A stretch of 17,963 bases of DNA, taken from positions 1-17,963 of the forward strand of contig JBBKWS010000082.1 of NCBI GenBank assembly GCA_037969075.1, written 5' to 3'. Below are positions 2,572 through 17,344 of the stretch, piece by piece. A program made the position numbers and the translations under genes. The stretch comes from Bdellovibrionales bacterium. GTDB lineage: Bacteria; Bdellovibrionota; Bdellovibrionia; Bdellovibrionales; UBA840. Position 1 is the first letter of the stretch, and each line of letters starts with the position of its first letter. Below the pieces are notes generated by a model, which had not been told where the DNA came from, did no database searches, and was given only the letters and a program-made list of their open reading frames with translations.

Positions 2572-3327
2572 TTATAAAATTTCAATTTCATACTTTAGCG
2601 TAAGAGCTTTTTCAAAATTTATAGAATTATTATTCCAAAAATAAAACTCAAAGATATTCTTCTCATCTCCATCCTCAAAAAACCATTGGTAATTTAGGTC
2701 AGATTTAGATTCAGTAATTTTAAGAGACCAAAACGGCACCTCGCCCTGCTTAAACGTAACTCGGTACGTCTGATTGGTGGTTAGACTTTTGACAAATCCA
2801 ACGCAACCGTTTGCACTTTCACATCTCTGCTTAGGTAAAAAGTGGACCGTTCCACCATTCGTGTGCAAAAAAATTAAATTCTTATCCGGGTATGGCACCT
2901 TAAATCGTAAGAGATTTTCTTTTGTAGGTGCGGCTTGAGAGATTTCGCTCGCAGATTCAGCTGGCTCTGTATCTTCAATTTTTGGTTCAATAGAATTATC
3001 ATTTGGCTTATCTTTGACTTCTTGATTATCAGTAAGATCTTTACTGTTCCTGGCTTGCAGTTCAGACTGTAGAGAGGACCACTCGACTTCAATCTTAGCT
3101 AGCTTAATAATGTCCTTAAATAACCCAAATCCTCTGTATTGAAACTCGATGATTTTATCTTCGCTGACAATTTGGCAAAACCCGTTACATACTAAAATGT
3201 CGTTGTCCTCTATCGATAAAACTTGATTGTGCGAAATACCTTTTTTAACAACAATGCCATTTTTAATATGAATGTCTGCCATACAAAATGATGTTAGTAT
3301 TTTAAGGATTAAAAATAGATACGTCAT
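2572..3327 (-). CDS. Exported hypothetical protein, last gene of the motor-like operon
   Basis: The preferred start is ATG 3327, which overlaps the upstream TGA (ATGA overlap at 3324-3327) and gives the signal-like MTYLFLILKILTSFCMA. Beta-rich N-domain (weakly FecR-like), acidic linker, beta-rich C-domain. Confidence 0.75.
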   Translation of the reverse strand: MTYLFLILKILTSFCMADIHIKNGIVVKKGISHNQVLSIEDNDILVCNGFCQIVSEDKIIEFQYRGFGLFKDIIKLAKIEVEWSSLQSELQARNSKDLTDNQEVKDKPNDNSIEPKIEDTEPAESASEISQAAPTKENLLRFKVPYPDKNLIFLHTNGGTVHFLPKQRCESANGCVGFVKSLTTNQTYRVTFKQGEVPFWSLKITESKSDLNYQWFFEDGDEKNIFEFYFWNNNSINFEKALTLKYEIEIL

Positions 3328-4457
3328 GCAATATGTTTCCACTGACTAACTACCGCACAGTTTCTTCCTCTTTTTTTGGCTTCATACAAGTTTTTATCAG
3401 CAGTCTCTACATATATAGTGTAAGTAGGGTCCGCAGCATCACTACCAGAGATAGCGACTACGCCAAAGCTCGCAGTAACTGAAAGTGTCTTACCTGGCTC
3501 TGCCAAATGTGGGACTTTAGTAGTTTCTAGCGCTGACCTTAACTTTTCTGCAGCTATTTTTAACCCTTCGATATCAGTTCTTGGTAAAACCACTACAAAC
3601 TCTTCCCCACCATACCTGGCAACTACGTCTGTATTTCTGGCAAGAGCCCTTAGTGTTTTTGCTACACCTCGTAAAACTTCATCGCCCTGTTGGTGTCCAT
3701 AGGTATCATTGAATTTTTTAAAATGATCCACATCTAATAAGATCAATCCGCAGATATCATTATGTCTCTTTGCCAAATTTAATTCGCGTTGAAAACTCTC
3801 TTTAAAAAATCTATGATTCTTTAACCCTGTCATTCCATCAGTGGTAGCAAGCTCAGTGTACTTCTCAAGGGCCTGATCTTTTATCTCTAAGTCTTTAGTC
3901 AACTTACCAAGTGATCTATAAATCATCCCAAGCTCATCATTGGCAGTATAACTTAAATTCATATCAAGTCGGCCTGCTAATATGTCTTCAGTGGCTCTTC
4001 TTAGTCGTTTTAATGGGGTAAGAGCAAAGCTTAAGTAAATATAAGAAAATATTCCTAATAGAATTGATAAAGATAAGAATATTAATAATAAATTAGTATT
4101 TATACTTTCTAGCCAAGCTAAAAAGCTTACTTCACTAATTTCAACACTAAACGTATTGTCAGAGTACTTTCTGACCATAAACAACGTCTGCTTTTTTCCA
4201 TTGTCTTTAATAAAACCCATAGAATTAATATTTGACCCAAGCCAATTTTGCAGTTCAGGCTCAGGCAGTTCTAACTTTTTTAAATCATCTTTAGTTTGGC
4301 GGTATAGCGTTTGATGATCTGTCATCATTTGAGAGATAAAACCTAAATAATGATCTTTTGACAATACATAGCTTGATAGGTAGCCAATAGATACTAGCGC
4401 TAAGGACATAAGCGCCGATAATATTAAAAATTTAATTTTCAGGCTTAGGCTCTGCAT
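3324..4457 (-). CDS. Membrane-bound HAMP-GGDEF diguanylate cyclase
   Basis: Two TM segments flank a ~90-aa periplasmic region. HAMP (PLKRL...DELG), TDGMTGLKN, LDVDHFKKFNDTYGHQQGD, active site GGEEF, and I-site RNTD five residues upstream. Confidence 0.95.
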   Translation of the reverse strand: MQSLSLKIKFLILSALMSLALVSIGYLSSYVLSKDHYLGFISQMMTDHQTLYRQTKDDLKKLELPEPELQNWLGSNINSMGFIKDNGKKQTLFMVRKYSDNTFSVEISEVSFLAWLESINTNLLLIFLSLSILLGIFSYIYLSFALTPLKRLRRATEDILAGRLDMNLSYTANDELGMIYRSLGKLTKDLEIKDQALEKYTELATTDGMTGLKNHRFFKESFQRELNLAKRHNDICGLILLDVDHFKKFNDTYGHQQGDEVLRGVAKTLRALARNTDVVARYGGEEFVVVLPRTDIEGLKIAAEKLRSALETTKVPHLAEPGKTLSVTASFGVVAISGSDAADPTYTIYVETADKNLYEAKKRGRNCAVVSQWKHIA

Positions 4458-4467
4458 TTTTTTACCT

Positions 4468-5196
4468 TTAATCGAAATTAGGAATAATTTTAATAACCAC
4501 TCTTCTGTTTTGCGATTGATTGTCTGTGATTGGCGTACCTTGGCTGTTTCGATTAGGTAAGATGGGCCTTGTGTCTGCCATACCTATTGCCTTCAGTTTT
4601 TGAGGATCAAAGCCTTTATCTAAAAAAAATCGTAAGACTGAGCTTGCCCGCAAGCTTGACAGCTCCCAGTTAGAAGCAATTACACCTGCATTGATTGGAC
4701 TATCATCTGTATGTCCTTCGATTAATAACTCGTATTCTTTTGCTTTACTTGAAATGATAGGCTGTAATTTTAAAAGCAGATCTAAAGCCTCAGGTTTCAT
4801 CGCAACAGAGGCCGAGTCAAAAAACAATGCCCCTCTAAACGTAATGTTAACTCCGGTTGCACTTTTTTCTACAATCACCTGATTCTCTAGACCCTTTTCT
4901 GAAATGGCTTTATCAAGGTTTTTTGATAATTCAGAAAAAGGAATTTGGTACTCTCCGCCAAATACTTTAGATGTCTCTTGTTTTACTTTTTCAAAAACCT
5001 CAGCATCTATTTTTGAAAAACTAAGAAGCATTACAAAGAAGCCCACAAGTAAGGTCATCATATCTGCATACGATATAAGCCAGTTGCCCTCACCCTCATC
5101 TACATGAGATGGCGACTCTGCTTCTTCAAAAAAATAAACAGCTGGCTTAGCCGCAGCCTTTATTTCTTCGTCCTTTAGTCTTTCTGCAGCTGACAT
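4468..5196 (-). CDS. motB: Stator B subunit, MotB/PomB family with OmpA-like peptidoglycan-binding domain
   Basis: WLISYADMMTLLVGFFVML carries the conserved ion-binding Asp (D45). Also IEGHTD, SNWELSSLRA and NRRV motifs. Confidence 0.95.
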   Translation of the reverse strand: MSAAERLKDEEIKAAAKPAVYFFEEAESPSHVDEGEGNWLISYADMMTLLVGFFVMLLSFSKIDAEVFEKVKQETSKVFGGEYQIPFSELSKNLDKAISEKGLENQVIVEKSATGVNITFRGALFFDSASVAMKPEALDLLLKLQPIISSKAKEYELLIEGHTDDSPINAGVIASNWELSSLRASSVLRFFLDKGFDPQKLKAIGMADTRPILPNRNSQGTPITDNQSQNRRVVIKIIPNFD

Positions 5197-5198
5197 AA

Positions 5199-5984
5199 TT
5201 AAGCAACCTTTTTAAGCTTGTTTCTTTCAAACGGTAGTAAATAACTCTTTAAAAACTCTTCAACAATCAGTGGGTGTTCTTTTTCTCTTAAAAGTTTAAT
5301 TCCTACAATGACCATTTTACGTGAAACCTGATCTTCTTTATTTAGCTTGATTAAATTTTCTCCCATAGGGATAAATACAAGGTTTGCGATTGCAATACCG
5401 TATAGAGTTGCCACTAACCCGATAGCCATCGCAGGGCCTAAGAGCTTAAATGAATCAGGTGACCCTATGTTTTGCAAAAGGGCGATCATACCAAGAGTAG
5501 TCCCTAACAAACCAAAAGCTGGAGGAAATTTACCCATTACCTTAAAAATATTTGCTTCATCCTCATATCTCTTAAAATGTGTTGCAGCTCTTTGTTGTAA
5601 AATGGCATCCATTTTATCTTCTGGTATCCCACCTTCAACCATGAGTTCTATAGCCTCTTTTAAAAATGGAAATTTGATAGCGTTAACACTATTTTTTAAG
5701 AACTGACTGTCTTCTCTATAGCCTTTTGATAAGATAACTATTTCTTCAATCAATGAAGAGTGAGTTCCGGCAAATTTACCTAAGATTTTTTTAAAAAACA
5801 CTGTAAACAAGGTTCTGATAGTCGAAAAAGGAAAACATATTAGTGTTGCAGCCATCGTTCCACCAATAACTATTGCTATTGCGTGTGGATCTAAAAATAT
5901 TTTCCAGTTGGATGTAGCTGATATGGTACCATAACCTAGTACTGCAATAGCTGTGAGTAATCCAATAATTGCTGTAAAATTCAT
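5199..5984 (-). CDS. motA: Stator A subunit, MotA/PomA family
   Basis: IVIGGT, PAFGLLGT, VATLYG, NLVFIP and a C-terminal HP motif. Its stop lies 2 nt before the motB start. Confidence 0.95.
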   Translation of the reverse strand: MNFTAIIGLLTAIAVLGYGTISATSNWKIFLDPHAIAIVIGGTMAATLICFPFSTIRTLFTVFFKKILGKFAGTHSSLIEEIVILSKGYREDSQFLKNSVNAIKFPFLKEAIELMVEGGIPEDKMDAILQQRAATHFKRYEDEANIFKVMGKFPPAFGLLGTTLGMIALLQNIGSPDSFKLLGPAMAIGLVATLYGIAIANLVFIPMGENLIKLNKEDQVSRKMVIVGIKLLREKEHPLIVEEFLKSYLLPFERNKLKKVA

Positions 5985-6013
5985 ACGTTTATCCTTTTAG
6001 CGTAATCATACAA

Positions 6014-6595
6014 TCATAAAAAATAATAAAGTCCAAAAAAAATATGCACCATTCGTAGTCTACCATCGCCAACGATACCCTCTGCCCAATTTAGTTCTGA
6101 GCGCCAGCCCCAAGGACCAAAAAGAGGAGATTCAAAACCGGCCTTGCCAGACACATAGGCCTTGGCAACAGATACATCTCTTCCATTTTCTGTGAGTCTT
6201 GGTAGACTGGATTGAGCAAAACCAACGGACGCACCTAGATAAGGAATGTAACCTTTTTGTAGTATTACAGTTTCTTCAATTTGATCTGACGGATTTTTTA
6301 AATCTTGCGCATGCGGTGTCCATAAATACCATCTCGCAGCAAAGCCAGTGGCCCCAATATTACTTTTGGTACCCTTCCAACTTCTATTGTGCTCAAAGCC
6401 AATGGTAAACCTAGAGCTCATCGAGTACTCAGTAGAAAATCCTAATGCCAATGGCTCTTCTGTTTTAACTACACCTTCATTCTCGGCACCTGCTGAACCA
6501 ATCCCAAGGCTACCCACAAAGCGTATGTTGCTAGACTCCGCTAGCGCACCAAAACAAAAGAAAAGAATCGATGCGATCATACTAAGAGGCCACAC
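6014..6595 (-). CDS. Small outer-membrane beta-barrel protein (probably 8-stranded)
   Basis: GTG start with a strong SD (GAGGAGG, 6602-6608 on minus). Signal peptide ending ALA. Alternating amphipathic strands (PYLGASVGFAQ, YVSGKAGFE, WGWRSELNW) and C-terminal HIFFGLYYFL. Confidence 0.8.
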   Translation of the reverse strand: MWPLSMIASILFFCFGALAESSNIRFVGSLGIGSAGAENEGVVKTEEPLALGFSTEYSMSSRFTIGFEHNRSWKGTKSNIGATGFAARWYLWTPHAQDLKNPSDQIEETVILQKGYIPYLGASVGFAQSSLPRLTENGRDVSVAKAYVSGKAGFESPLFGPWGWRSELNWAEGIVGDGRLRMVHIFFGLYYFL

Positions 6596-8468
6596 GTACC
6601 GCCTCCTCAGTGTTATTACTTACAGTAAAGATCGAATCTAAATCTACTTCGCCTTTATTTACCATTTTAAGTAGCTTTAATTTAAGTGAACTTAAATGTT
6701 TATTTTTAGTCTTAATATCCATCTTATCTTCAAGATTAAAATCATCATTAACGATGGTTTTTATTCTAGATGGGCATAAATTTAAAATTTGATCTTTTTT
6801 GTCAGCATATACTTTTACCAAAGACATAACTTCATCGTTAGTGGCTTGCGTAAATAAGTTTCTGGCTTTTTCTTCTGGCCACTCATGGATAAAAGCAAGA
6901 GATGGAATGTTTTTCTTTAAAGATATGCCACCATCTGAAATTTTGGGGACGATATCTTTTAATAAAAGAAGTTCATCTAATACAGAGATAGAGGCAAACA
7001 GTCTTGGTACCAATGATTGCATGGAAACAGTATCTTGAGTATTAACTTTCTTTTTTACTTCAAACTTTAGTGTTTCACTAGCAGTTTCAATATCGGTAAC
7101 CAAAACCGCATTCATATTTAGAGCATTTTCGATAATTTCTTTCTTTTGCTCAAAAGTAGCTTTTTCTAAATATTCTTCTTGTTTTGCTTCTGGTAAATGA
7201 AGTACGGCAAGCGCTCGCATCTGACCAGATTGGCCCTCAAGCATGGCTTGAATGTCTTTTGTTGGTACCTTAGATATATAGTCAAATGGTTGCTGTAAAT
7301 ACGAAGCACCTAGAGCCTTTAGCGATAGTAGGTCCCAATAGACTTCTTCTAAAATTTTAAGCCTATCCTCAAATGAGGAATCTGCCATTTTGTCAAACGT
7401 ACTGCGCATGCTTTTCTTTACAGAATCTGGGATAATGTCATTAAAATTTAAAATGCTTTCAATTTTATTACTTTCTTTTAATCTATCATTTTGAGAGGCA
7501 ACAACGTCTAATAAACAGGCGGCCTTTACATAACCCCTATCGCCTGCATCAAGCCAAACGCTCATAATATCTTTTATGTTCTTTGTGTTTTGATTTACGG
7601 TCCAAACCACTTTACTATGTACATCTTTCAGCATGTCTAGCTCAAATTGTCCTAAGCTCCGCTGAGGAATTAGCTTTTGTTCGTCCTCTTCAACTATGTC
7701 TATTACTGGCTCAGCAGGCCTTTCCATCTGTAACTCATTATGCTGTTGTTGAAGCCGAGCTCTTAAACTACGCTCTTCAGTAGCATCTTTTGAGCTCATT
7801 CTTTTTATCAAAAAAATACTAACCAGTACTGTAAAAAATAACAGTAGAGCTGCAATCAAAGTTTGCAATTGAGAAATGTAGTCAAAAAATCCAGTTGGTA
7901 GTTTTGGTTCAATGGGTTTAGATTTTATTAAATTTACTTCAACATTTGTAGAAATACCAGAAAAGTCATTTTCCGTTGTTTTTTTAAGCCAATCTAAAAA
8001 TACTTTTGAGTACTCCTCACCGTATATCTCTTGCAGTCCAACTTGAATGTTTAGTGACTTTACTTTAAATTCTTTTTTATTATTAGTTTCTTGTAAAATT
8101 GTTTGCGTGATAATCTCTTGCCGAATCTTAAGATTATCTATTTCTTCTTCATAGCTTCTAATCAATCCTTCTGCATCAATTAGACCTGCCGTCAAGTCTA
8201 AGGCTCTAGGCTCAGAAGCTATTTTTCTTACAGGTGTGAATGGTTTATTAGTACTTACTTGTGTTAGCTCGGCTTGGACACTTACTTCAAATGTGTCTTT
8301 TTCTAATGTGGTACCGACGGTTGCCCTTAGGCGTTTATTGATAGCATCTTCTACTTGGGTTTTTGCATGAATTAAATCGGCATCACCCAGGGTTTGCGCA
8401 AAAGCAAACTTTGGCGCTATTAGCGCCGTACAAAGTATAAAAATGATAGTAGACAAAGCTAATTTCAT
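6582..8468 (-). CDS. FliF-FliG-like fusion protein (signal peptide, RBM3-like periplasmic domain, one TM helix, FliF C-tail, FliG N/M/C-like domains)
   Basis: Signal peptide ending AFA. RBM3-like INKRLRATV...FEVSVQAEL and KVKSLNIQV; TM at aa ~203-221; junction IMSVWLDAGDRGYVKAACLL; FliG_M-like PFDYI...RALAVLHLP; FliG_C-like CPSRIKTIVNDD and KGEVDL. The ORF itself is certain; the domain call is from remembered motifs. Confidence 0.8.
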   Translation of the reverse strand: MKLALSTIIFILCTALIAPKFAFAQTLGDADLIHAKTQVEDAINKRLRATVGTTLEKDTFEVSVQAELTQVSTNKPFTPVRKIASEPRALDLTAGLIDAEGLIRSYEEEIDNLKIRQEIITQTILQETNNKKEFKVKSLNIQVGLQEIYGEEYSKVFLDWLKKTTENDFSGISTNVEVNLIKSKPIEPKLPTGFFDYISQLQTLIAALLLFFTVLVSIFLIKRMSSKDATEERSLRARLQQQHNELQMERPAEPVIDIVEEDEQKLIPQRSLGQFELDMLKDVHSKVVWTVNQNTKNIKDIMSVWLDAGDRGYVKAACLLDVVASQNDRLKESNKIESILNFNDIIPDSVKKSMRSTFDKMADSSFEDRLKILEEVYWDLLSLKALGASYLQQPFDYISKVPTKDIQAMLEGQSGQMRALAVLHLPEAKQEEYLEKATFEQKKEIIENALNMNAVLVTDIETASETLKFEVKKKVNTQDTVSMQSLVPRLFASISVLDELLLLKDIVPKISDGGISLKKNIPSLAFIHEWPEEKARNLFTQATNDEVMSLVKVYADKKDQILNLCPSRIKTIVNDDFNLEDKMDIKTKNKHLSSLKLKLLKMVNKGEVDLDSIFTVSNNTEEAVRVAS

Positions 8469-9122
8469 TTAGGGGCTAACCTCTTTACTAGGAAGTCTTT
8501 GAGTTTTACCAACCCCATCTCCTACTATTTTTTTTAAATAAACTACCATCTTATTGGCATCATCAAAATTTGGGTCCAGTGCTAATGCTTTTTCAAACCA
8601 CTTTAAGCTTTCAGTGTATTCTTTTTGAATAAAATAAATAGAGGCTTTAAAAGATACACCTCTTGTGAACTCACTATCAATCGCTAAGGCCTTATCAACT
8701 TCTTCATGCGCCCTTGTGAACTCTCTTAAGTTTGCAAATTTTTGAGCATTAAATAAATTTTGCAGAAGTTTTTGCGCTATTTGGCTTTCTTCTTTTCCAG
8801 GCTTTAATTTAGCCAAGATAATGGTTTCTTTTGCTCCCATGCGACTGGCTGGTACTAGCATGCGCTCTGGCAGAAAATCTTTTTTCTCAACAATTAATTC
8901 AAAAAAATCACCACTTGAAGATGTTACTTGTGCTTTTTTTTGCAATTCTTCTTGGCTAATTTCTAAAGGTGTTTTACCTAAAGAAATTTTTTCTTCTCTA
9001 CCAGTGGTTTTTGCATACACCTCTGCTTCACTAGGTTCGCTTTTTATTACAAACTTAGATGCACATGATGATACTAATAACATTACTAGTAGTAATTGTA
9101 ATAATCGAAGTATCTGTGACAT
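8469..9122 (-). CDS. Lipoprotein with PEGA-like N-domain and TPR repeats
   Basis: Lipobox LVSSC (Cys20). IKSEPSEAEVY...LGKTPL is PEGA-like. KALAIDSEF and YTESLKWFEKALALDPNF are TPR-like. Its stop directly abuts the next ATG. SD GAGGA. Confidence 0.85.
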   Translation of the reverse strand: MSQILRLLQLLLVMLLVSSCASKFVIKSEPSEAEVYAKTTGREEKISLGKTPLEISQEELQKKAQVTSSSGDFFELIVEKKDFLPERMLVPASRMGAKETIILAKLKPGKEESQIAQKLLQNLFNAQKFANLREFTRAHEEVDKALAIDSEFTRGVSFKASIYFIQKEYTESLKWFEKALALDPNFDDANKMVVYLKKIVGDGVGKTQRLPSKEVSP

Positions 9123-9140
9123 AAAGTATCCTCATTGTAC

Positions 9141-9167
9141 TTATCGTCAACAGCGTAGAATCATTAA
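9141..9167 (-). promoter_or_regulatory. Putative sigma28 (FliA)-type promoter of the motor-like operon
   Basis: TTAA-N15-GACGATAA on the minus strand versus consensus TAAA-N15-GCCGATAA, 18 nt upstream of ATG 9122. Confidence 0.55.
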
Positions 9168-9268
9168 AGGTTTTAGGATTCATCTAGACTTAATAGTTGG
9201 TTGATTTGTATTTATTTTTTTACAGACTTGATGTAAGTCGATGGACTGGGCTAGATGTTAGTGTTGCT

Positions 9269-9433
9269 AACTGGCCTACTTTAGTGTTGTTATTTTCTAT
9301 TATCTCTAGTTACTATTTAGCTAAGGTGTCGTGTACATTTCGTTAAGTGCCCGAGAAAGCAATAAAAAAATATCAAAATTCAGCTATTTACAGGTTATTG
9401 ATTAGAGTTCAACAACACTAAAGTAGGCCAGTT
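9269..9433. repeat. Perfect 23-bp inverted repeat with a 119-bp spacer
   Basis: AACTGGCCTACTTTAGTGTTGTT (9269-9291) and its exact reverse complement AACAACACTAAAGTAGGCCAGTT (9411-9433). Confidence 0.95.
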
Positions 9434-9459
9434 TAAACATTCCTACCTGAAACAACAAA

Positions 9460-9535
9460 ATGACCATTATAATGGTCATAAAAGGCAATTAAGTATATTA
9501 TAATGGTCATCCAGCTTGACTATTGATAGGCCTAA
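9460..9535. promoter_or_regulatory. Palindromic operator array upstream of the HTH antitoxin gene
   Basis: Perfect 20-bp palindrome ATGACCATTATAATGGTCAT (9460-9479), a second copy AAGTATATTATAATGGTCAT (9491-9510), and a degenerate third copy at 9516-9535. Confidence 0.75.
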
Positions 9536-9544
9536 TTATATACT
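9516..9544 (+). promoter_or_regulatory. sigma70-type promoter of hipBA, probably leaderless
   Basis: TTGACT (9516-9521), 17-nt spacer, TATACT (9539-9544). ATG follows after 6 nt with no SD. Confidence 0.75.
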
Positions 9545-9550
9545 TATAGC

Positions 9551-9886
9551 ATGACCGAAACTAAGAAAAGAACCTATTCACGCTATACAAAAGAGGCTAC
9601 TGTCCTGCTGGCCAAACACATCAAGCTTTGTCGTAAAAAGCGCGCTTTATCAGAGCAAAGTGTAGCGGACCGTGTTGGTATTTCTCGTGCAACTCTTCAA
9701 AAGATTGAAAAGGGAGACCCTAAGTGCGAATTGGGTTTGTATTTCGAGACTGCAACTATAGTGGGGGTTAAACTTTTTGAAGTGGATTCTTCATTTGTGG
9801 CAAATATCCAGCAATTAAATGAAACGCTGGCCTTACTTCCAAAGAGCATTCGTAAGAAAAAAACAGTGGTAGATGATGACTTCTAA
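9551..9886 (+). CDS. XRE/Cro-type HTH regulator, HipB-like antitoxin
   Basis: HTH_3 pattern RKKRALSEQSVADRVGISRATLQKIEKG. Overlaps the start of the HipA-family gene. Confidence 0.9.
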   Translation: MTETKKRTYSRYTKEATVLLAKHIKLCRKKRALSEQSVADRVGISRATLQKIEKGDPKCELGLYFETATIVGVKLFEVDSSFVANIQQLNETLALLPKSIRKKKTVVDDDF

Positions 9887-11189
9887 AATACAAAAGTACA
9901 ATGAAGCTTACGTTTGGATTTGGCTACCCGGCGAAGTACAGCCCGTGGTCGCCGGAAAATTAACTGCTGAGAACAAAAACTTAGTTTTTAATTATGGCCA
10001 AACATATTTAGAACGTCCCAATAAAATCTCTATCTATGAGTCAGAACTCCCATTACAAAGAGGTATACTTGCATTACGTGGCATCTTAACAATTCCTGGA
10101 TGTATTCGTGATGGATCTCCTGATGCTTGGGGAAGACGGGTTTTAATCAACAAAAAATATGGTGCCGTAGGTTCTTCTATTGACCAAGTTCAAATGGATG
10201 AACTTGCGTTTCTACTTGAGTCTGGATCGGACCGAATCGGTGCATTAGATTTTCAAAAGTCGCCCACTATTTACAAGCCGCGCTTAACACAAAATGCCAC
10301 TCTAGAAGAACTTATCGAGTCCGCCGAACGGGTAGAAAAAGGCATTCCCCTTACTTCTGAATTAGATCAGGCTCTTTTTCATGGAAGCCCTATCGGAGGC
10401 GCGCGTCCAAAAGCACTGGTTGAAGATACTGAAAAAAACAAAAAGTATATTGCTAAGTTTTCATCTACTACTGATTTTTATAGTGTCATCAAAGCTGAAT
10501 TCATCGCTATGAAATTAGCCAGACTATCTGGTTTAGATGTCGCAAATGTTTTATTAAAGAAATCTTCTGGAAAAGATGTACTGCTTGTTGAAAGATTTGA
10601 CCGCTTTTATTCTCCTAGGGGCTGGGAACGCAAGAATATGGTTTCAGCATTAACTATATTTGAGTTTGATGAAATGGAAGCTAGATATGCAAGTTATGAA
10701 GTCTTGGCCGAAATTATTAGACATAGATTTTATGATCCTTCAATAGCATTAGTAGAGCTGTTTAAACGACTCGTATTTAATATATTGGTGGGTAACAACG
10801 ATGATCACGCCAGAAATCATGCAGCCCTTTGGGATGGAAAAATGCTAAAACTCACACCTGCCTATGACATCTGCCCTCAGCCACGAACTGGCGGTGTCTC
10901 TTCGCAAGCCATGCGTATTCACGGTAATATAAACTCAAGTCAACTTAACGAATGCATTGTTGCAGCATCACAGTTTCTGTTAACTAAAAAAGAGGCGATT
11001 TTAGCTATCGAAGAAATTGCCGTAAGTATTATTAAAAATTGGAAGCTTATTTGTAAAGAGGCCGAGCTTTCAATCGTTGATAAAAATCTATTCGCTGCTA
11101 ATCAGTTTTTTAATCCATTTGCGTTTCAAAACCTGGATGATGAAAGCAAGCACCTTGAGAAACTTCTTAAAAAATTTAAGGACCTATAG
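9873..11189 (+). CDS. hipA: HipA-family Ser/Thr kinase toxin
   Basis: N-domain PDAWGRR and DRIGALDF, Gly loop IGGARPK, LLVERFDR, catalytic NNDDHARNH and LTPAYD. The start could be 9873 or 9876. Confidence 0.93.
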   Translation: MMTSKIQKYNEAYVWIWLPGEVQPVVAGKLTAENKNLVFNYGQTYLERPNKISIYESELPLQRGILALRGILTIPGCIRDGSPDAWGRRVLINKKYGAVGSSIDQVQMDELAFLLESGSDRIGALDFQKSPTIYKPRLTQNATLEELIESAERVEKGIPLTSELDQALFHGSPIGGARPKALVEDTEKNKKYIAKFSSTTDFYSVIKAEFIAMKLARLSGLDVANVLLKKSSGKDVLLVERFDRFYSPRGWERKNMVSALTIFEFDEMEARYASYEVLAEIIRHRFYDPSIALVELFKRLVFNILVGNNDDHARNHAALWDGKMLKLTPAYDICPQPRTGGVSSQAMRIHGNINSSQLNECIVAASQFLLTKKEAILAIEEIAVSIIKNWKLICKEAELSIVDKNLFAANQFFNPFAFQNLDDESKHLEKLLKKFKDL

Positions 11190-11356
11190 CCATGAAGCCT
11201 TCTCTAAGCTCGCAAACATTACGTGGTCGTACATTTGGGTGGTTAACCGATAGATCACCCTACTCGTTAGCGTTGGCTGAGCTTCGCTATCTAAAATTTG
11301 TTATGTTTCGAATAGAGTCTTAATCGTTTCAAGAATAGTTAAATCGAACTAAATGG

Positions 11357-14300
11357 TTACTCCCAAAGCGGAGTAACACCTCGTAAAATCGGAAACCCAT
11401 TATTAATAGTATTAGACGTCGGCATCTTCCACACTGTGGTAAAGTCCCAGCCTGCCGCTGTAAAATTACCTTGGTCACGCATTTGCGTAATATTTAAATC
11501 CGTTGCACCACTACTTAAACCAGATGCTGCTTGGCCTGTGCCGGCGCTATAATAAAAGTTATTGCTTGCAATAAATTCAAGTAAAGTTTGAGTCCCTACG
11601 ATAGAATTGGTGTTAGCAAGACCACTAGCAGAGGCCATAGCATAGTTTCGCGATAATGTAATCTGTGCTGGACTTGTATTTATATTACCTACTAGGCCGC
11701 CGTTAGTTGTACCGTTAGGACAACTTAAGCTTACATTTGCATACGTATCACTGATACTAGAAGTATATGTATTACCACCTACTGAGCCAATTAATCCACC
11801 TAAAATGCAGTTAGAGATACGCGGTGAAAATATTGAACCTTTAGTGACGACATTTGATAAGATCAACGAGCCAGGATTTGCTATAGAACCCGCGACGCCA
11901 CCATAATTATAACTATTTAAACTAGTACCAACAATATTAGCAGTAATAGATACGTTTTCTAAAATGACACGCCCGCTACTCGTACTGCCAATTACGCCGC
12001 CACCGTTACCTGATGAAATTGAAGAAATATTAGTAGTAATTTGGCTATTTGTTAACCTAAAACCACCTGTGCTGGCGCCTATTACACCACCTACATTTAC
12101 ATATTGATTTATGAAATTCACATTTATTTTTATATTATTAAAATCAATGCCGGTGACCCCTGCACCAACCAAGCCTCCCACTGTATTCGGGACGTTGCCA
12201 TCAATAGTACCATGAACAAAAACATTCTCCATTGGTGTAGCACAATTAGTAGTGCCGCATTGACGATTGCCAATAACCAATCCACCTCTCACACCTTCTA
12301 CAAACAAATTACCATTTAATATATGAATATTCCCCGTGACATTAGAACTCTGTGAAAAGTAATGCCCCATTAAGTTAGCAACTTGGTTTCTGCCTCTTAT
12401 ATTGAAGTTCTTTATAAATAAATTTTTAAACCAAGTATTATCATTGCCAAGCGCACCTGCATATCCAAATAAAGCATTATAGTCCCTTGAAGTATCATTA
12501 TATACGTAGTTAGAGACCATCATGTTGTTACCGTCAAGTCTTCCATAAAGCGGTAAAGCTGAAGACCCAATCGGCACAAACGAATTCGCAGTCCAAGAAG
12601 CTAAATCGATATGATCCATTAGTTTAAAGTAATATTCGCCTTGTAAAAAATCAGTTGGTGCTTGATCACGAAGGCGGTTTAGTTGGTCGCCGTTACAGAT
12701 GATAAACGGATCACCAATGGCACCTGTGCCTGATGCCATACCTGTTGGCGGTTGGGCTTGGTCGCAAATGTAAGAGTCGATATAGGTGTAAATGCCTGCG
12801 GAGGCGGTTTGTCCGTCTTCGTTTTCAACCTGCACAGTGGTGCTTGTCTCTGTCAAACTTGTAGGAGTTAAGCAAGTCATTACATTAAACTCATTTCTTG
12901 TAAGACCTGTATCACAGTAGTTTGATCCCACCTTAATTCTGGCACCATTACCAAAGCCGTCACCTTTAACAAGTAACATCTTACCACCAGAGCGGTGCCC
13001 TGTGTTTCTACCTAAATACTGTACACTCATAATGTTGGCAGATTTTACCGTAATGTTAGCTTCACTTGTGTTACCCGCAAGATCAGTAGCCCTGATTAAA
13101 TAATTGATATACCTGTTTTGACCAAAAGGCCCTTTTTGATTGGTAATACTTGTTAATCCAAAACCACTCGTTACCAATGTATCTGATGTGGTTGCAAGAA
13201 CATCTACATCGTCTTCATCGGCACCAATTTTTTTATACACATCCACTGAGATTTGACCTAAACTCGTCACTGCATCTACCAGTGTCCAATCTAGCTTCCA
13301 TAATTTATCTTTTACACTTCTTGCACTATTATCTATTTTTTTAATCGCAAGACTGCCGATACCTGGAGGCGTTAAATCATTAATTACAACTTGTTTAATA
13401 TTGTTGTCATCACAACTCATATTGTTGGATTGATCAAATGCACAAACAATATAGTAATACACATTACCTTCAACTAAAGTATCCACGTCTGTTAAGCTTG
13501 TTGCTACCGTCAGGTTTGTAATAACCGTAATGTTAGGGCTTGGATCAATATCTGGCCTGCTCTTTGGAAGCGCGTAATCACTACCGCGTTTTCTGTAAAG
13601 CCTATATCTAATCACACTACTATCTTGCTGATTATCCGTAGCAGCAGACCAAGAAACTAAAGGGTTAGCGCCAGCTCCTACAGTCAATCCTGAGTTAAAT
13701 ACCGGGATTGTTAAATCGCTCGTCCTCGCTACCTGCTTATAAGAGCCTGGAGGACTGAGGTAAGAAGTAATATTACCTGATATGTCGTAGGCTGCTACAT
13801 ATAAATTATATGTTTTATAAGCTGGTAACCCTTGAATACTGCAACTTGTAATAGTGTTTGGACAATGATTACCAGAGCATGGACAATCTTTTATAGCAAC
13901 CGCAGGGATTGTTGTATCATTATCTAAAGCATAGATTTTAAACCCACGGTACTCAGCCCATGATGGTGGAGCTGCCCATGTCACTGTGATTTTCCCCTCT
14001 TCTGTTGGATCGGCTGTAGCTAAAGTAATACCTGTAAAACCTGCAGGAGGGGTAATGTCTGGAATAAGTAAACTTAGTGCCTGAGTATTAGAAAAGTTTG
14101 TACAATTTTGCGCCCCATACGTCGGAAACGCATCATCACAAGCATTTACAAGTACAAAAATTTGTTCATTATCTAAATAAGCATAATCACTTTGCTTAAA
14201 ACTAGCACCAGTCGAAAAGCTACCGTGCGACTTAGCTGGTAGCTCTACTAAAGCCACAGGGACAGTTTGTGTACCCTTCCAAACTTTAATTTTATACTCT

Positions 14301-15781
14301 TTAATGTCCCCTGCGACCGATGGATCCCAAGTTAACTCCACCCTGTTTTGCTCATTATTATAAGAGATGCCAATCAAACCATTGAATTCAGGGGCAGTGA
14401 TATCTTTAGTGATTAAATCTAACTGCGCTGTCGTGTTTGAAATATTCCCGGCGGTGTCTCTAGCCTTTACACAAATGCCGTAACGACTTCTCTGCGCTAA
14501 GTTAATCAAATCATATACCACAGGGTTACCAGTCGTGTATGCACTCGCATCAACCTGCGAAACTAGTATGCCATTAGTACAAACAGTCATTGGGTCAGCA
14601 AGACCTAGGGTTTGACTATAAACTAAATAATGGCTAGCACCATTTGCATTACCAGGCTGTGAGTCAATAGCCGTCCAACCAAGCGCAAGTACAGTGTCTT
14701 GCGGACTGCCATAATTTAATGTTTCAATTCCTGTAAAAGCAGGAGCCGTTGTATCACCAGAATTAATACTAACAATTGCGGTTGCTGTATTACTTAAATT
14801 ACCTATGGGATCTTCATCGATTACATAATAAGAATAATCAGTGTTTTGAGCTAATACTTCATTTACATTTAAACTTGTGGCCGGAGCAATATAAGGACTG
14901 GCAACATTAAAAGTTTGAATCAATGTATATGCACCTACTCCAATTTGTCTGTAGACTAAACGTCTTTTTATTGCGCCATTAGCAAACGACCAAGGAGCGT
15001 TTAATACCGAGCGCCCATTGACTATACTTACACCAATTAAACCAAGTGTCTGCGGTGCACCCCTATCAACTAACGTAAGCGCACGTGTTGCGGTATTTGT
15101 ATCACAAACATTACTAATATTACAGGCTCTAACCGCATATCTATACGGCATCTCATCACCAATCGCCGTTATTGGGATACTAAAAGTATTTGCGCTCCCA
15201 TTTGTTACTGTCGCAATAGGAGCCAAACTAAAATTAATATCCCCACTATTAGGCCCAGGGTTTGCGTAGATTTTATATTCTTTCGTAGGTATACCTGTTG
15301 CCACATTCCACTGAACCACCACATTAGCACCTGTAAGCGTAGCAGATGTTATACCACTAAATGTTGGTGGATTAACCGCCTCTGTAGTCTCAGTGACCGT
15401 TTGATCACCTAATAAATCTTTACCATTTTTAGTAAGTACGCACTCGTAAGTATAAGTTGTTCCTTCAACTAAGCCAGAGTCTAAAAAAGACGTAACCGTC
15501 GGATTTAAAAACACACCAGCCAGTGAACTATTACGAAAAACTGTAATTTTGGTTGCATCACTTGGAAATTCAAACTCAACTAATATACTATTGACCCCTT
15601 GTGCTGTCGCACTCACACAGCCATTGATTCCTGAATTGGTTGAGGAGGTAGCATCTTCTGCGGTTTCTTTAAGACATCCAATGGTAGAAAGCAATAAAAC
15701 AGATAGCATCGCAAAAACATAAAGTTTTTTGCGCGCAAAAGCCGATCTTATATTATACGTTCTAGCAGATAACGATTCCAT
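11357..15781 (-). CDS. Large surface lipoprotein/adhesin-like protein with FN3-like repeats, an IPT/TIG-like domain and a GLUG-motif C-terminal region
   Basis: Lipobox-like STIGC (Cys36). Repeated domain starts VNPPTFSGI, DTTAPAFTGI, DITAPEFNGL, DITPPAGFTGI, DLTIPVF, DLTPPGI. IPT-like GGKMLLVKGDGF...CLTP. GTGAIGDPFII followed by repeated xGG(L/V)(I/V)G and terminal GWDFTTVW...NGFPIL. Confidence 0.85.
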   Translation of the reverse strand: MESLSARTYNIRSAFARKKLYVFAMLSVLLLSTIGCLKETAEDATSSTNSGINGCVSATAQGVNSILVEFEFPSDATKITVFRNSSLAGVFLNPTVTSFLDSGLVEGTTYTYECVLTKNGKDLLGDQTVTETTEAVNPPTFSGITSATLTGANVVVQWNVATGIPTKEYKIYANPGPNSGDINFSLAPIATVTNGSANTFSIPITAIGDEMPYRYAVRACNISNVCDTNTATRALTLVDRGAPQTLGLIGVSIVNGRSVLNAPWSFANGAIKRRLVYRQIGVGAYTLIQTFNVASPYIAPATSLNVNEVLAQNTDYSYYVIDEDPIGNLSNTATAIVSINSGDTTAPAFTGIETLNYGSPQDTVLALGWTAIDSQPGNANGASHYLVYSQTLGLADPMTVCTNGILVSQVDASAYTTGNPVVYDLINLAQRSRYGICVKARDTAGNISNTTAQLDLITKDITAPEFNGLIGISYNNEQNRVELTWDPSVAGDIKEYKIKVWKGTQTVPVALVELPAKSHGSFSTGASFKQSDYAYLDNEQIFVLVNACDDAFPTYGAQNCTNFSNTQALSLLIPDITPPAGFTGITLATADPTEEGKITVTWAAPPSWAEYRGFKIYALDNDTTIPAVAIKDCPCSGNHCPNTITSCSIQGLPAYKTYNLYVAAYDISGNITSYLSPPGSYKQVARTSDLTIPVFNSGLTVGAGANPLVSWSAATDNQQDSSVIRYRLYRKRGSDYALPKSRPDIDPSPNITVITNLTVATSLTDVDTLVEGNVYYYIVCAFDQSNNMSCDDNNIKQVVINDLTPPGIGSLAIKKIDNSARSVKDKLWKLDWTLVDAVTSLGQISVDVYKKIGADEDDVDVLATTSDTLVTSGFGLTSITNQKGPFGQNRYINYLIRATDLAGNTSEANITVKSANIMSVQYLGRNTGHRSGGKMLLVKGDGFGNGARIKVGSNYCDTGLTRNEFNVMTCLTPTSLTETSTTVQVENEDGQTASAGIYTYIDSYICDQAQPPTGMASGTGAIGDPFIICNGDQLNRLRDQAPTDFLQGEYYFKLMDHIDLASWTANSFVPIGSSALPLYGRLDGNNMMVSNYVYNDTSRDYNALFGYAGALGNDNTWFKNLFIKNFNIRGRNQVANLMGHYFSQSSNVTGNIHILNGNLFVEGVRGGLVIGNRQCGTTNCATPMENVFVHGTIDGNVPNTVGGLVGAGVTGIDFNNIKINVNFINQYVNVGGVIGASTGGFRLTNSQITTNISSISSGNGGGVIGSTSSGRVILENVSITANIVGTSLNSYNYGGVAGSIANPGSLILSNVVTKGSIFSPRISNCILGGLIGSVGGNTYTSSISDTYANVSLSCPNGTTNGGLVGNINTSPAQITLSRNYAMASASGLANTNSIVGTQTLLEFIASNNFYYSAGTGQAASGLSSGATDLNITQMRDQGNFTAAGWDFTTVWKMPTSNTINNGFPILRGVTPLWE

Positions 15782-15787
15782 ACTAGC

Positions 15788-15814
15788 TTTTCGGATAAAT
15801 AAGACTAATACTAA
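15788..15814 (-). promoter_or_regulatory. Possible sigma28-type promoter of the large lipoprotein gene
   Basis: TTAG-N15-TCCGAAAA on the minus strand, 6 nt before ATG 15781. No SD visible. Confidence 0.35.
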
Positions 15815-15879
15815 AGTATAGTCTTACATTGATACACTATAATTAATCATGGTTAATATTGAAACATACGCAAGACTAC

Positions 15880-16422
15880 TTAAAAATAAATCCAATCAAA
15901 GTGGTAGTCCTCTACCTGCTGCACCTTTTGTGGCACTCCCTGCCCAGAGAATCTTTGGTATCTTGATTTAATTGTACCAAAAGCAGGTAGACTTGGCCGC
16001 CCGCTTTCAGCAACAAAGTATGTAGTTGAACAGATCCGACTTACTGCTTGGCCTATTCGCGCACGCTCCACGCATCCAAGAATAGAAGGTGCCTGTATAA
16101 CCTCAATCTTCTCAACTGGGCTTGGCAAAAATGCAGCATGCATGATTGGAGCTAAAGTCAGTATTTCTCCTGCCGCGGCTGTAACAGAAATATCAAACCA
16201 GCAAGAAAAACTATTTTCTGTCGGCTCAATATTAGCTACATTATTTTCTTGATTCAAATCACTTGGATTTTGCAAATCATCTACTAGGGCCTGTTTAAAC
16301 ATTTGCTCGACAGCCGAATCAAGGTCATTTGTGTCAGCATCTATACCTGAGCAGTTCTGAAATAAAACAATAATCATTAATGATGAGACACCTATCAATA
16401 GTGACCTAACAATTACTTTCAT
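15880..16422 (-). CDS. Hypothetical lipoprotein with an FQNC lipobox
   Basis: The preferred start is ATG 16422 (GGAG 6 nt upstream), giving MKVIVRSLLIGVSSLMIIVLFQNC. The track's TTG at 16470 falls inside the putative promoter. Confidence 0.8.
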   Translation of the reverse strand: MKVIVRSLLIGVSSLMIIVLFQNCSGIDADTNDLDSAVEQMFKQALVDDLQNPSDLNQENNVANIEPTENSFSCWFDISVTAAAGEILTLAPIMHAAFLPSPVEKIEVIQAPSILGCVERARIGQAVSRICSTTYFVAESGRPSLPAFGTIKSRYQRFSGQGVPQKVQQVEDYHFDWIYF

Positions 16423-16453
16423 TTGCACTCCGAATTTCTGGTTCATTACTATT

Positions 16454-16480
16454 GTATCGGAATAGATCAACTATTTATTA
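16454..16480 (-). promoter_or_regulatory. Putative sigma28-type promoter of the FQNC lipoprotein gene
   Basis: TAAT-N15-TCCGATAC on the minus strand. Confidence 0.5.
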
Positions 16481-16597
16481 AGTTTTCGTGCTACATTTTT
16501 GTCTCATTTTGATACAGCAAAAATGCGTTACTTACTCGTCAAATAATTTGATTCTTAGCCCCTTTCTTTCTATGATTACTCAATTCGGGGGGTCTTT

Positions 16598-17344
16598 ATG
16601 AAGTATCTAATAGTTTTTACAACATTGCTAATCGCATTCACAGGGCTGGTTGAAGCAGCAGAAGAATCTAGCAGCTGCTTCAAAATGAAAGACTCTACAC
16701 TACTGCAATATCTGTGTTCTGAAACAAATAAAGATGTGGTGATCCCTAATTTTGTCACCGCAATTGATGATTACGCGTTTGCTTTTAATGACTTACAGAG
16801 CGTAGTTATTCCTAAGTCTGTTACTTCAATAGGTAGATGGGCTTTTGCCTATAACCAGTTAACATATATAACAATCCCTAGCTCGGTACATTCGATTGGC
16901 AAAGGTAGTTTTGCTGAAAACCAGCTTGAGGTTCTAGTGATTCCTAAGTCTGTTACTTTTGTTGGCGAAGACGCATTTTATAGTAATCAATTAAGAGAAG
17001 TACTTATTCCTAACTCTATTACTTCAATACCTAATGGAGTTTTTTATAAAAACCAATTAACTACTATAACAATCCCTAATTCGATTGTTTCTATTGGTGA
17101 AAAAGCCTTTGCTAATAACGATCTACAAAGCCTCTCACTGCCAAGTTCCGTCAATGATATTAATGATTGGGCCTTTGCAAATAACCAATTACAAAGTGTA
17201 CAAATTCCTAATTCTGTCACCATTATTGGTGCATATGCTTTTTACTCCAACCTATTGAAAAAGGTATTCATCCCCAGCTCTGTAATTTCGATTGGTTATA
17301 AGGCTTTTGCTGAAAATCCGGATATTACAATTGATAGAGATTAA
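16598..17344 (+). CDS. Exported BspA/TpLRR-like leucine-rich repeat protein
   Basis: Signal peptide ending VEA, then nine tandem 22-aa repeats of the form xxIPxSVxxIGxxAFxxNxLxx (16736-17329). SD GGGGG. Confidence 0.92.
   Translation: MKYLIVFTTLLIAFTGLVEAAEESSSCFKMKDSTLLQYLCSETNKDVVIPNFVTAIDDYAFAFNDLQSVVIPKSVTSIGRWAFAYNQLTYITIPSSVHSIGKGSFAENQLEVLVIPKSVTFVGEDAFYSNQLREVLIPNSITSIPNGVFYKNQLTTITIPNSIVSIGEKAFANNDLQSLSLPSSVNDINDWAFANNQLQSVQIPNSVTIIGAYAFYSNLLKKVFIPSSVISIGYKAFAENPDITIDRD

Follow-up and report, generated by a model that had tools for sequence, protein, structure and literature searches.

To our knowledge, the rotor protein FliG has so far been taken to be a part of the flagellum alone. 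A preprint on flagellar loss reports, in its accessible part, rotor proteins without a filament in 11% of non-motile species and suggests that they may have another function (10.1101/2024.12.05.626484), and a second preprint, likewise in its accessible part, describes motAB and fliG homologues, of unclear role, in non-flagellated Elusimicrobiota (10.1101/2022.07.08.499144). Bdellovibrio and similar organisms are reported to carry one to four stand-alone motAB pairs per genome, which are treated as flagellar stators in a study whose accessible text leaves FliG unmentioned (PMC11323537), and the available portions of that study and of two others read the extra Bdellovibrio pairs as flagellar (PMC11323537, PMC13689555, PMC12505986). 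In the type IX/Gld system, GldLM stators turn an outer membrane (OM)-associated GldKN ring that moves adhesins, and the 2026 review from whose available sections this is taken calls the gliding motor of Bdellovibrionota unidentified (PMC13104615). Here we analyse an operon of a Bdellovibrionales bacterium in which a FliF-FliG-like ring-rotor fusion, referred to as the rotor, is encoded together with its own MotA and MotB. The operon lies on contig JBBKWS010000082.1 of assembly GCA_037969075.1, of which the whole stretch of 17,963 nucleotides was analysed and is called the window.

The core genes of this operon, referred to below as the module, specify a real and conserved machine of flagellar-type parts that is apparently undescribed; no paper defining the system was found in a literature search that subscription journals and preprint supplements largely lay outside. 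That the module is a stator-driven machine other than the flagellum we regard as very probable. Our best explanation goes further and is held tentatively, at somewhat less than even strength: the module would be an ion-driven ring motor that works without the flagellum and moves, as its load, a giant lipoprotein on the cell surface. Rotation and binding are among the steps that we infer.

The operon and its ring-rotor fusion

The host assembly comprises 2.5 Mb in 211 contigs and is 90% complete and 5.7% contaminated; the window is its contig C82. The initial annotation had described seven co-oriented genes, and an open reading frame (ORF) scan of the window agrees with it in number, strand and coordinates: seven minus-strand ORFs occupy 2572..9122, with intergenic gaps of 0, -14, 29, 2 and 10 followed by -19 if the last gene is read from its first GTG or, as annotated, -4 if it starts at ATG 3327. 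In order of transcription they encode a lipoprotein, the rotor, a small OM beta-barrel, MotA, MotB, a membrane HAMP-GGDEF diguanylate cyclase and an exported protein. The annotated identities of MotA, MotB and the HAMP-GGDEF protein are backed by Pfam and NCBIfam matches, and its remark that flagellar export, rod, hook and switch genes are missing holds for the window, where none was found in the ORF list or by Pfam. Promoter and terminator scans of the window stayed at chance level (25 against 26.9 and 7 against 7.1, respectively), and no match to the FliA-type promoter consensus was found in it. Misassembly at the barrel-motA junction was considered and set aside, as one public contig, though possibly this DNA's own source, covers 5581-16500 without differences.

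The rotor (628 aa; 6582..8468, minus strand), like the 193-aa and 256-aa products of the operon, has no significant Pfam or NCBIfam match as a single sequence. Its relatives number 190 among 50%-identity representatives, and a family profile built from 126 of the 150 listed finds FliG structures in the PDB (best E 4.6e-19, 1lkv) and the host's canonical FliG (95.9% probability). The top 10 Foldseek matches of the predicted structure (pLDDT 85.2, pTM 0.45) all contain FliG. In a wide structural search residues 28-184 resembled the FliF S-ring/RBM3 domain of the MS-ring 8z5v (Z 12.3, rmsd 3.1, 97 aa), residues 393-472 resembled FliG_M of 4fq0 (Z 11.2, rmsd 1.8, 80 aa), and residues 521-608 resembled FliG_C of 1qc7 (Z 9.9, rmsd 2.4, 88 aa). 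The protein has two hydrophobic stretches, an N-terminal one with an AxA-type end motif and a second at about 200-222; taken with the structural matches, these give a chain made up of a signal peptide, RBM3, one transmembrane (TM) helix, a helical linker region (274-390) and FliG_M-FliG_C, so that the FliF-FliG-like fusion of the initial annotation is upheld, its FliG part by profile and model and its FliF part by the model. Matches to FliG_C are present in 30, to FliG_M in 29 and to FliG_N in 11 of 56 family members; Foldseek alignments to full-length FliG extend over about 320 columns, and residues 274-390 themselves matched no domain in the PDB profile search, the wide structural search or the comparison with the canonical FliG.

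The two TM helices and the RBM1-RBM2-RBM3 series of FliF are replaced in the rotor by a single RBM3-like periplasmic domain of about 160 aa before one TM helix. Compared with a single canonical FliF, the rotor profile gave no significant match (probability 0.3%), and the link to FliF is therefore a structural one. The acidic pair of the torque helix (Asp575/Asp576), to which, as to the basic residue of that helix, we assign the roles described in work on E. coli, has been retained in 114 and 115 of the 126 homologues. EHPQ, which we take to be the FliM-binding motif of FliG_M, occurs in none of the 126 (the window protein has QSGQ) and is present in the host's canonical FliG. Without RBM1 and RBM2 and without EHPQ, the fusion could neither house an export gate nor dock FliM. 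According to the accessible part of a published study, RBM3 can assemble into an S-ring by itself, and the export gate sits within RBM2 (PMC11739650).

A DNA-pattern search started from the fusion recovered no relative among 109 candidates, and a word-index search with a broad rotor alignment returned only 4 proteins, one of them automatically named FliG. On the host genome the rotor profile gave only 2 matches; three divergent copies escaped it and were recovered through MotA and gene order. Look-alikes by feature, which are leads only, fall in clusters dominated by Balneolota, Pseudomonadota, Elusimicrobiota and Myxococcota as the most frequent phyla. At two loci (L119:4217-5245 and L121:4850-6022) the rotor is preceded by a second, shorter gene (342-390 aa) that matches the ring and TM part of the rotor's N-terminal half, so that one subtype may have rings of two components. 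The host also encodes, at C140:2782-3435 (L002, L017), a 217-aa protein that stands by itself, with a single FliG_C domain and without a motor gene in its vicinity, and a similar short FliG_C frame occurs in the genome G256.

The lipoprotein (217 aa; 8469..9122, minus strand) is a core part, as is, in most subtypes, the small barrel (193 aa, or 188 from ATG 6580; 6014..6595, minus strand). The lipobox cysteine of the former, Cys20, is nearly invariant in 59 homologues, and its model (pLDDT 91.5) has a small PEGA-like beta domain at 23-105 and a TPR domain at 110-201. Of the PEGA/TPR lipoprotein first annotated, the TPR half is upheld by Pfam matches of the window protein, whereas PEGA is matched in 12 of the 59 family members and in the window protein not at all. 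The barrel call is sound as well: the protein itself has no match, and 10 of 26 members of its family match PF13505 (OMP_b-brl). The barrel profile matches OmpW weakly (E 0.057), and length and alignment suggest that it is probably 8-stranded and of the OmpW/OmpA type.

Stator lineage and relation to the flagellum

The window MotA (261 aa; 5199..5984, minus strand) aligns over its full length to PomA models and matches the PomA/MotA models at E ~1e-40, a score below those models' cut-offs. MotB (242 aa; 4468..5196, minus strand) has the ion-binding Asp45, a plug (PF13677, E 2e-15) and an OmpA-type wall anchor (PF00691, E 7e-13). Both functional prolines of MotA are present in 48 of 48 rotor-linked rows of the alignment, and the Asp motif of MotB in 74 of 75. 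At the positions of PomA Thr158 and Thr186, which we take to be sodium-binding residues, the window MotA has Thr, as do 31 and 48 of the 48 module rows.

A quick tree was made of 86 MotA-family proteins, including 6 reference flagellar stators and 14 Bdellovibrionota stators without a linked rotor. Its flagellar stator clade (20 rows, SH-aLRT 99) contains none of the 48 rotor-linked MotAs; 12 more MotA rows without a rotor in the fetched stretch group among the module rows, and the ExbB/TolQ proteins of the host form a clade separate from module MotA. In a 41-row subset a single clade of module MotAs was not rejected (p-AU 0.535) and a move of the window MotA alone into the flagellar clade was rejected (p-AU 0.035). 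With an uncertain root and only 6 outside references in these quick trees, the module stators may be the sister group of the flagellar stators or a fast offshoot, perhaps one nested in flagellar diversity beyond this sample. Their closest named relatives are nearly all Bdellovibrionota records, and rotor and MotA identities track each other across locus pairs. At L177, L180, L184, L191, L196, L197, L200 and L201, a module-type motAB stands beside a family of charged, coiled-coil-like proteins of 1035-1350 aa, with no rotor in the fetched stretch.

The host has a separate canonical flagellar set. A flgB-flgC-fliE-fliF-fliG-fliH-fliI run lies on C110 (the names, except that of FliG, being our reading), FlhA and FliM are encoded on C87, there are seven flagellin-domain matches, and C86 carries a stand-alone motAB that the tree places with the flagellar stators. 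Alongside this set the host carries four copies of the module, in the window, on C182, on C193 and across C136 and C78; the end of C136 (L016) and the start of C78 (L015) overlap by 119 bases, which gives the order giant NHL/Ig lipoprotein, lipoprotein, motA, motB, rotor, barrel.

Two of these copies amount to a natural swap. From motA to the last gene, window 2572-6040 and C182:11481-14949 (L012) correspond over 3469 bp at 87% nucleotide identity with mostly synonymous changes, and the cyclase and motAB of this duplicate differ by 94 synonymous against 26 non-synonymous codon changes, which indicates purifying selection. MotA is 96.9% identical between the two copies, whereas rotor, lipoprotein and barrel are about 20% identical (rotor 19.3%, lipoprotein 20.6%). 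In ten other pairs with MotA at least 90% identical, the rotors are at least 66.5% identical. Since a 97% identical MotA accompanies a 19% identical rotor in one genome, the stator looks generic, and rotor, lipoprotein, barrel and giant together look like the set that confers specificity. Contamination of the bin as the source of C182 was considered and appears improbable, the GC and tetranucleotide profiles of the module contigs being ordinary (the lowest, C78, at the 7th percentile) in an assembly of the stated contamination; even if C182 were a contaminant, a swap would be needed to account for such a MotA with such a rotor. The C182 copy has an extra 549-aa gene between barrel and motA (C182:9813-11462; L012:7814-9463) with a weak coiled-coil match, and comparison ruled out this gene and a 325-aa extra gene of another copy as rotor paralogues.

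Near-identical stators beside a 19% identical rotor, and the very fast divergence of some rotors, are also what might be expected of a static envelope scaffold, in which MotAB would serve as an ion channel or wall clamp that the fusion ring only gates or positions, with no productive rotation. The loss of part of the charged interface, described below, points the same way. The acidic torque pair, however, ranks with the most strongly conserved features of the rotor family, and the MotA prolines and the MotB Asp motif have been kept, and we consider a scaffold of this kind quite improbable.

The occurrence of the module was examined in 301 genomes of the phylum Bdellovibrionota. A rotor search was positive in 252, most of which matched only through canonical FliG; close rotors (E <1e-100) were found in 18 of the 301, the host included, and there are many distant forms of 560-800 aa. 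Within 5 kb of the 56 rotor genes in the fetched loci, a lipoprotein is found near 52 and a barrel near 45, and within 6 kb motA is found near 45 and motB near 45, counts that are partly circular because the profiles were built from the same loci. A second sample consisted of the best 80 of 526 loci chosen by MotA alone, many of them on short contigs and some the same DNA as earlier loci; rotor, lipoprotein and barrel were present in 40, 39 and 38 of these 80. All five core genes stand in the window's order in the complete genome of Bdellovibrio sp. HCB185ZH (L187). Gene order differs between subtypes, and several genomes have motAB at a distance from lipoprotein-rotor-barrel. In one subtype (L079-L082, L084, L117) the rotor has 710-800 aa, the small barrel is missing and the lipoprotein is preceded by a gene of 380-415 aa; in another (L069-L078, L083, L085-L087) two small barrel genes flank the lipoprotein and a 300-330-aa gene of no known family lies beside the rotor.

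As to INDEPENDENCE from flagellum, the module is present in three genomes of one genus (G232, G172 and G247; 97, 98 and 97% complete) and in G071 (91%). FliP and FliM were found in none of these four genomes, which are incomplete and represent two lineages; FlhA and flagellin were not found in the three of them that were searched, nor was canonical FliG found in these module genomes, where FliG_C occurs only in the fusion of G071 itself. G256, a flagellated control, was positive wherever it was included. All MotA matches in the genomes without FliP and FliM lie outside the flagellar clade. One of the G232 rotors is closely related (E 8.8e-147); the remaining rotors of its genus have diverged strongly, yet they stand in the rotor position and group with the C193 rotor of the host.

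These genomes bear on whether the module could instead be a set of auxiliary flagellar parts, with an extra MotAB that powers the ordinary flagellum under some conditions and a fusion that is a modifier or a relic. The host is flagellated, and the module stator may cross-talk with the flagellar rotor. A MotB plug and OmpA domain mark flagellar-type stators, according to the available text of PMC12505986, and the main published caution is the report that three B. bacteriovorus motAB pairs each contribute to one flagellum (Morehouse 2011, as given in the accessible part of PMC13689555). Auxiliary parts would, however, have to persist in genomes in which FliP, FliM and canonical FliG were not found and whose MotA matches are outside the flagellar clade; the stator, moreover, co-varies with the fusion and not with flagellar stators, and the fusion is without RBM1/2 and EHPQ. 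We hold this explanation to be very improbable. The initial annotation had proposed a non-flagellar rotor-stator unit, and the recurrence of the gene set across Bdellovibrionota, the FliG matches of the 628-aa protein, the separate flagellar genes of the host and the position of the rotor-linked MotAs in the stator tree all support it.

Giant lipoproteins, the cyclase and the proposed function

Upstream of the operon, outside the interval first annotated, is a gene for a giant lipoprotein of 1474 aa with fibronectin type III repeats (11357..15781, minus strand), the proposed surface cargo or output of the machine. Its N-terminus is lipobox-like. The initial annotation took the loci on both sides to be unrelated, which fails upstream: this giant is 39% identical over about 1200 aa to the 1633-aa giant that abuts the C182 copy. 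It is separated from the operon only by an interruption that is no part of the machine (9268..11189, plus strand), made up of a repeat of about 165 bp (9268-9438) and a toxin-antitoxin-like pair, an HTH protein (9551-9886; Pfam HTH_3) and a HipA-like protein (9873-11189; HipA_C). At 9272-9437 the repeat matches contig C165 at 72%, with loose ends at 9268 and 9434-9438, and further copies occur elsewhere in the sample. Beyond the giant are a 196-aa probable lipoprotein without a Pfam match (15880-16470) and a BspA-type leucine-rich-repeat protein (16598-17344), and downstream of the operon are two divergent PAP2-family phosphatase genes (723-1544 and 1607-2521) for which no link to the module was seen.

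Giants are enriched at module loci. The host has 30 ORFs of at least 1000 aa, 4 of them with an extracellular, beta-rich composition, and 3 of these 4 are beside a module, as against 1.7% of random windows. The fourth (C137:1950-5021) is 55% identical to the C136 giant and has no module gene on its contig, and the C193 module has no giant nearby. Across genomes, 43 rotor loci span at least 14 kb, and giants were found at 23 of them and in 3 of 40 arbitrary 16-kb windows of the same genome set (Fisher p 4.7e-6); of all 59 rotor loci, 27 have one. The giants fall into several families. All 16 that were scanned carry Pfam fn3, Ig, FG-GAP, NHL or Kelch domains, that of L116 coming from a flagellar-clade locus, and where the start is intact, 31 of 35 fit a lipobox-like pattern under a loose expression.

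From these parts we propose the following mechanism. The fusion would be exported and its signal peptide removed, its one membrane helix would hold it in place, and RBM3 would self-assemble into a ring at the inner membrane. Wall-anchored MotA5B2 units would conduct ions by way of Asp45 of MotB and act on the FliG_C ring through Arg90 of MotA and the Asp575/Asp576 pair, and as FliM and FliN could not dock, rotation would be one-way and free of CheY control. An insertion in place of the beta-collar may transmit the motion to the TPR lipoprotein and the small barrel, which would bear the giant adhesin or set it in motion on the cell surface, in attachment, surface movement or prey contact. In the sub-lineage of the window the co-transcribed cyclase would probably tune the attached state.

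The linkage between giants and module would look the same if the job of the motor were export or surface display of the giant, with no later movement of cell or adhesin, by analogy with GldLM/PorLM as energisers of type IX secretion or with Ton/Tol pulling OM proteins. The giants are lipoproteins that would need a route to the surface, and a ring without RBM1/RBM2 leaves an open centre; the combination of a TPR protein with a barrel resembles the Slam lipoprotein translocon. A barrel of about 190 aa is, however, probably too narrow for a folded or large protein, no common C-terminal signal was seen by eye across the giant families, and many modules have no giant nearby. Export as the whole of the task thus appears unlikely to us, and we return to a motor that moves the giant as the preferred reading.

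The cyclase (377 aa; 3324..4457, minus strand) has GGEEF at 283, RNTD (RxxD) five residues earlier and DVDHFK upstream, which by sequence would be the active, inhibitory and metal-binding sites of a working diguanylate cyclase. The exported protein that follows (251 aa from ATG 3327, or 256 from GTG 3342; 2572..3327, minus strand) was assigned to no family, its best Atlas score of 0.81 being a lead only. Among the 80 MotA-selected loci the cyclase follows motB in 2, L135 and L137, which are two of the three closest stator relatives, and homologues of the last gene occur in 5, standing directly after the cyclase in the same two. The pair is beside three of the four host copies, after motB in the window and on C182 and facing the module on C193, and a cyclase is present at 4 of 56 rotor loci, three in the host and one with a more distant GGDEF protein. 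Cyclase and last gene are accessories of one sub-lineage that travel together, not core parts, and coupling to cyclic di-GMP (c-di-GMP), which the initial annotation had presented as the output or control of the motor, does not extend to the module in general.

A load or surface sensor, in which stalling of the ring alters stator occupancy and the cyclase converts this to c-di-GMP, would make good use of such an enzyme. Its GGEEF and RxxD sites are intact, it has been under purifying selection together with motAB in the C182 duplicate, and it and the last gene keep their place both in the host and after motB in L135 and L137; stator mutants are also reported to change c-di-GMP in B. bacteriovorus in the available part of PMC11323537. 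The scarcity of the cyclase at the 80 MotA-selected and 56 rotor loci, however, and its short periplasmic loop, with no evident stator-binding domain, leave sensing improbable as the main function. Sensing and the moving of an OM component had both been put forward at first; the giant, which went unnoticed then, is adhesin-like and of a class enriched at the loci, and for this reason we favour the second over the first.

Several observations weigh against a motor that turns and moves a giant. At the position of Arg568 in the rotor, no more than 58 of 126 homologues have a basic residue. Of the charged rotor-facing residues of MotA (E. coli numbering), the equivalent of Arg90 is present in the window protein, but just 28 of 48 rows have Arg or Lys there, and that of Glu98 is lost in the window protein and is Glu in 3 of 48 rows, against an acidic residue in 20 of 20 flagellar rows, in a region with small indels. 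The RBM fold is also found in rings that do not rotate (SpoIIIAF, Z 8.3; PrgK, Z 7.8). At 20 of the 43 rotor loci, including those in complete genomes of genus g11, there is no giant within the fetched stretch; giants are present at only 17 of the 80 MotA-selected loci, and also at 2 of 14 flagellar-clade stator loci. The composition filter that defines adhesin-like giants was set after those of the module had been seen, and kinship inflates the Fisher p. The rotor HMM did not detect the most divergent rotors of genus g20, which is non-flagellated, and these are matched weakly (75% probability). Homologues of eight canonical flagellar proteins of the host were absent from the 80 MotA-selected and the earlier 86 loci, an absence that does not discriminate, because 14 flagellar-clade motAB loci are without them too.

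Comparison with known motors

The module is a candidate for the surface motor of Bdellovibrionota, and the extra motAB pairs of these predators are worth re-examining in its light. Its rotary core of three genes (fusion, MotA and MotB) could be rebuilt in a laboratory strain, and the host offers a natural swap of one stator between two very different rotors. In the boldest form of our reading, which is doubtful but deserves statement, bacteria would have in the module a third kind of rotary machine acting at the surface. Its FliF-FliG ring, without a switch and served by a separate lineage of stators, would drive giant lipoprotein adhesins over or through the OM, with interchangeable sets of rotor and adhesin on a generic stator. 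It might then be the motor of surface motility or prey contact in Bdellovibrionota, and its stators might be the sister of all flagellar stators, in which case it would show, in living cells, what a rotor-stator motor is like that has neither export gate nor filament.

Among described systems, the Agl-Glt and Ton/Tol motors (AglRQS, ExbBD, TolQR) are likewise ion-driven, of the 5:2 type, and act on OM proteins, to judge from the available parts of two publications (PMC13104615, PMC12505986). Unlike theirs, the module MotA is far nearer to MotA/PomA (E ~1e-40) than to TolQ (E 3e-5), its MotB has a plug and an OmpA domain, and its force would, by analogy, pass through a FliG ring and not through a TonB-like rod; MotB architecture and MotA clade thus both place it outside the Exb/Tol class.

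The type IX/Gld motor is similar in logic, combining a 5:2 ion motor, a ring, OM partners and a large adhesin in the account given by the accessible sections of PMC13104615. The ring of the module, however, would belong to the inner membrane, with FliG taking up the drive on the cytoplasmic side, its stator is of the MotAB type, and its giants are predicted to have lipobox-like N-termini. No match to GldL/GldM, GldK/GldN, SprA or PorV was obtained among the seven operon proteins with Pfam and NCBIfam, a comparison limited to those proteins, the genome itself not having been searched.

A natural FliF-FliG fusion is said to exist in a green sulfur bacterium, although literature searches did not find a source for it. 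In Vibrio and Salmonella, FliF-FliG fusions obtained by engineering or mutation share with the module a single ring-rotor chain and, in the available text of PMC10941966, the engineered ones assemble into rings efficiently. Those laboratory chains contain full-length FliF (about 100 kDa) and are meant for the flagellum, whereas the rotor of the module is natural, has 628 aa with RBM3 only, and comes with its own stator and partners.

With the core of the flagellar motor the module shares the RBM3/S-ring, FliG_M and FliG_C folds, the acidic pair, the MotA prolines, and the Asp, plug and OmpA domain of MotB. It nevertheless stands apart from the flagellar set in the architecture of its FliF part, in the missing switch motif, in its stator clade and in its presence where core flagellar genes were not found. 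Its FliF and FliG parts form one chain, a signal peptide takes the place of TM1, there is no RBM1/RBM2 and no EHPQ, and a loop and helix replace the beta-collar. Unlike the flagellar core, it has no linked export, rod, hook, switch or FliL genes, belongs to its own stator lineage, adds a lipoprotein, a barrel and a giant, and occurs without a flagellum.

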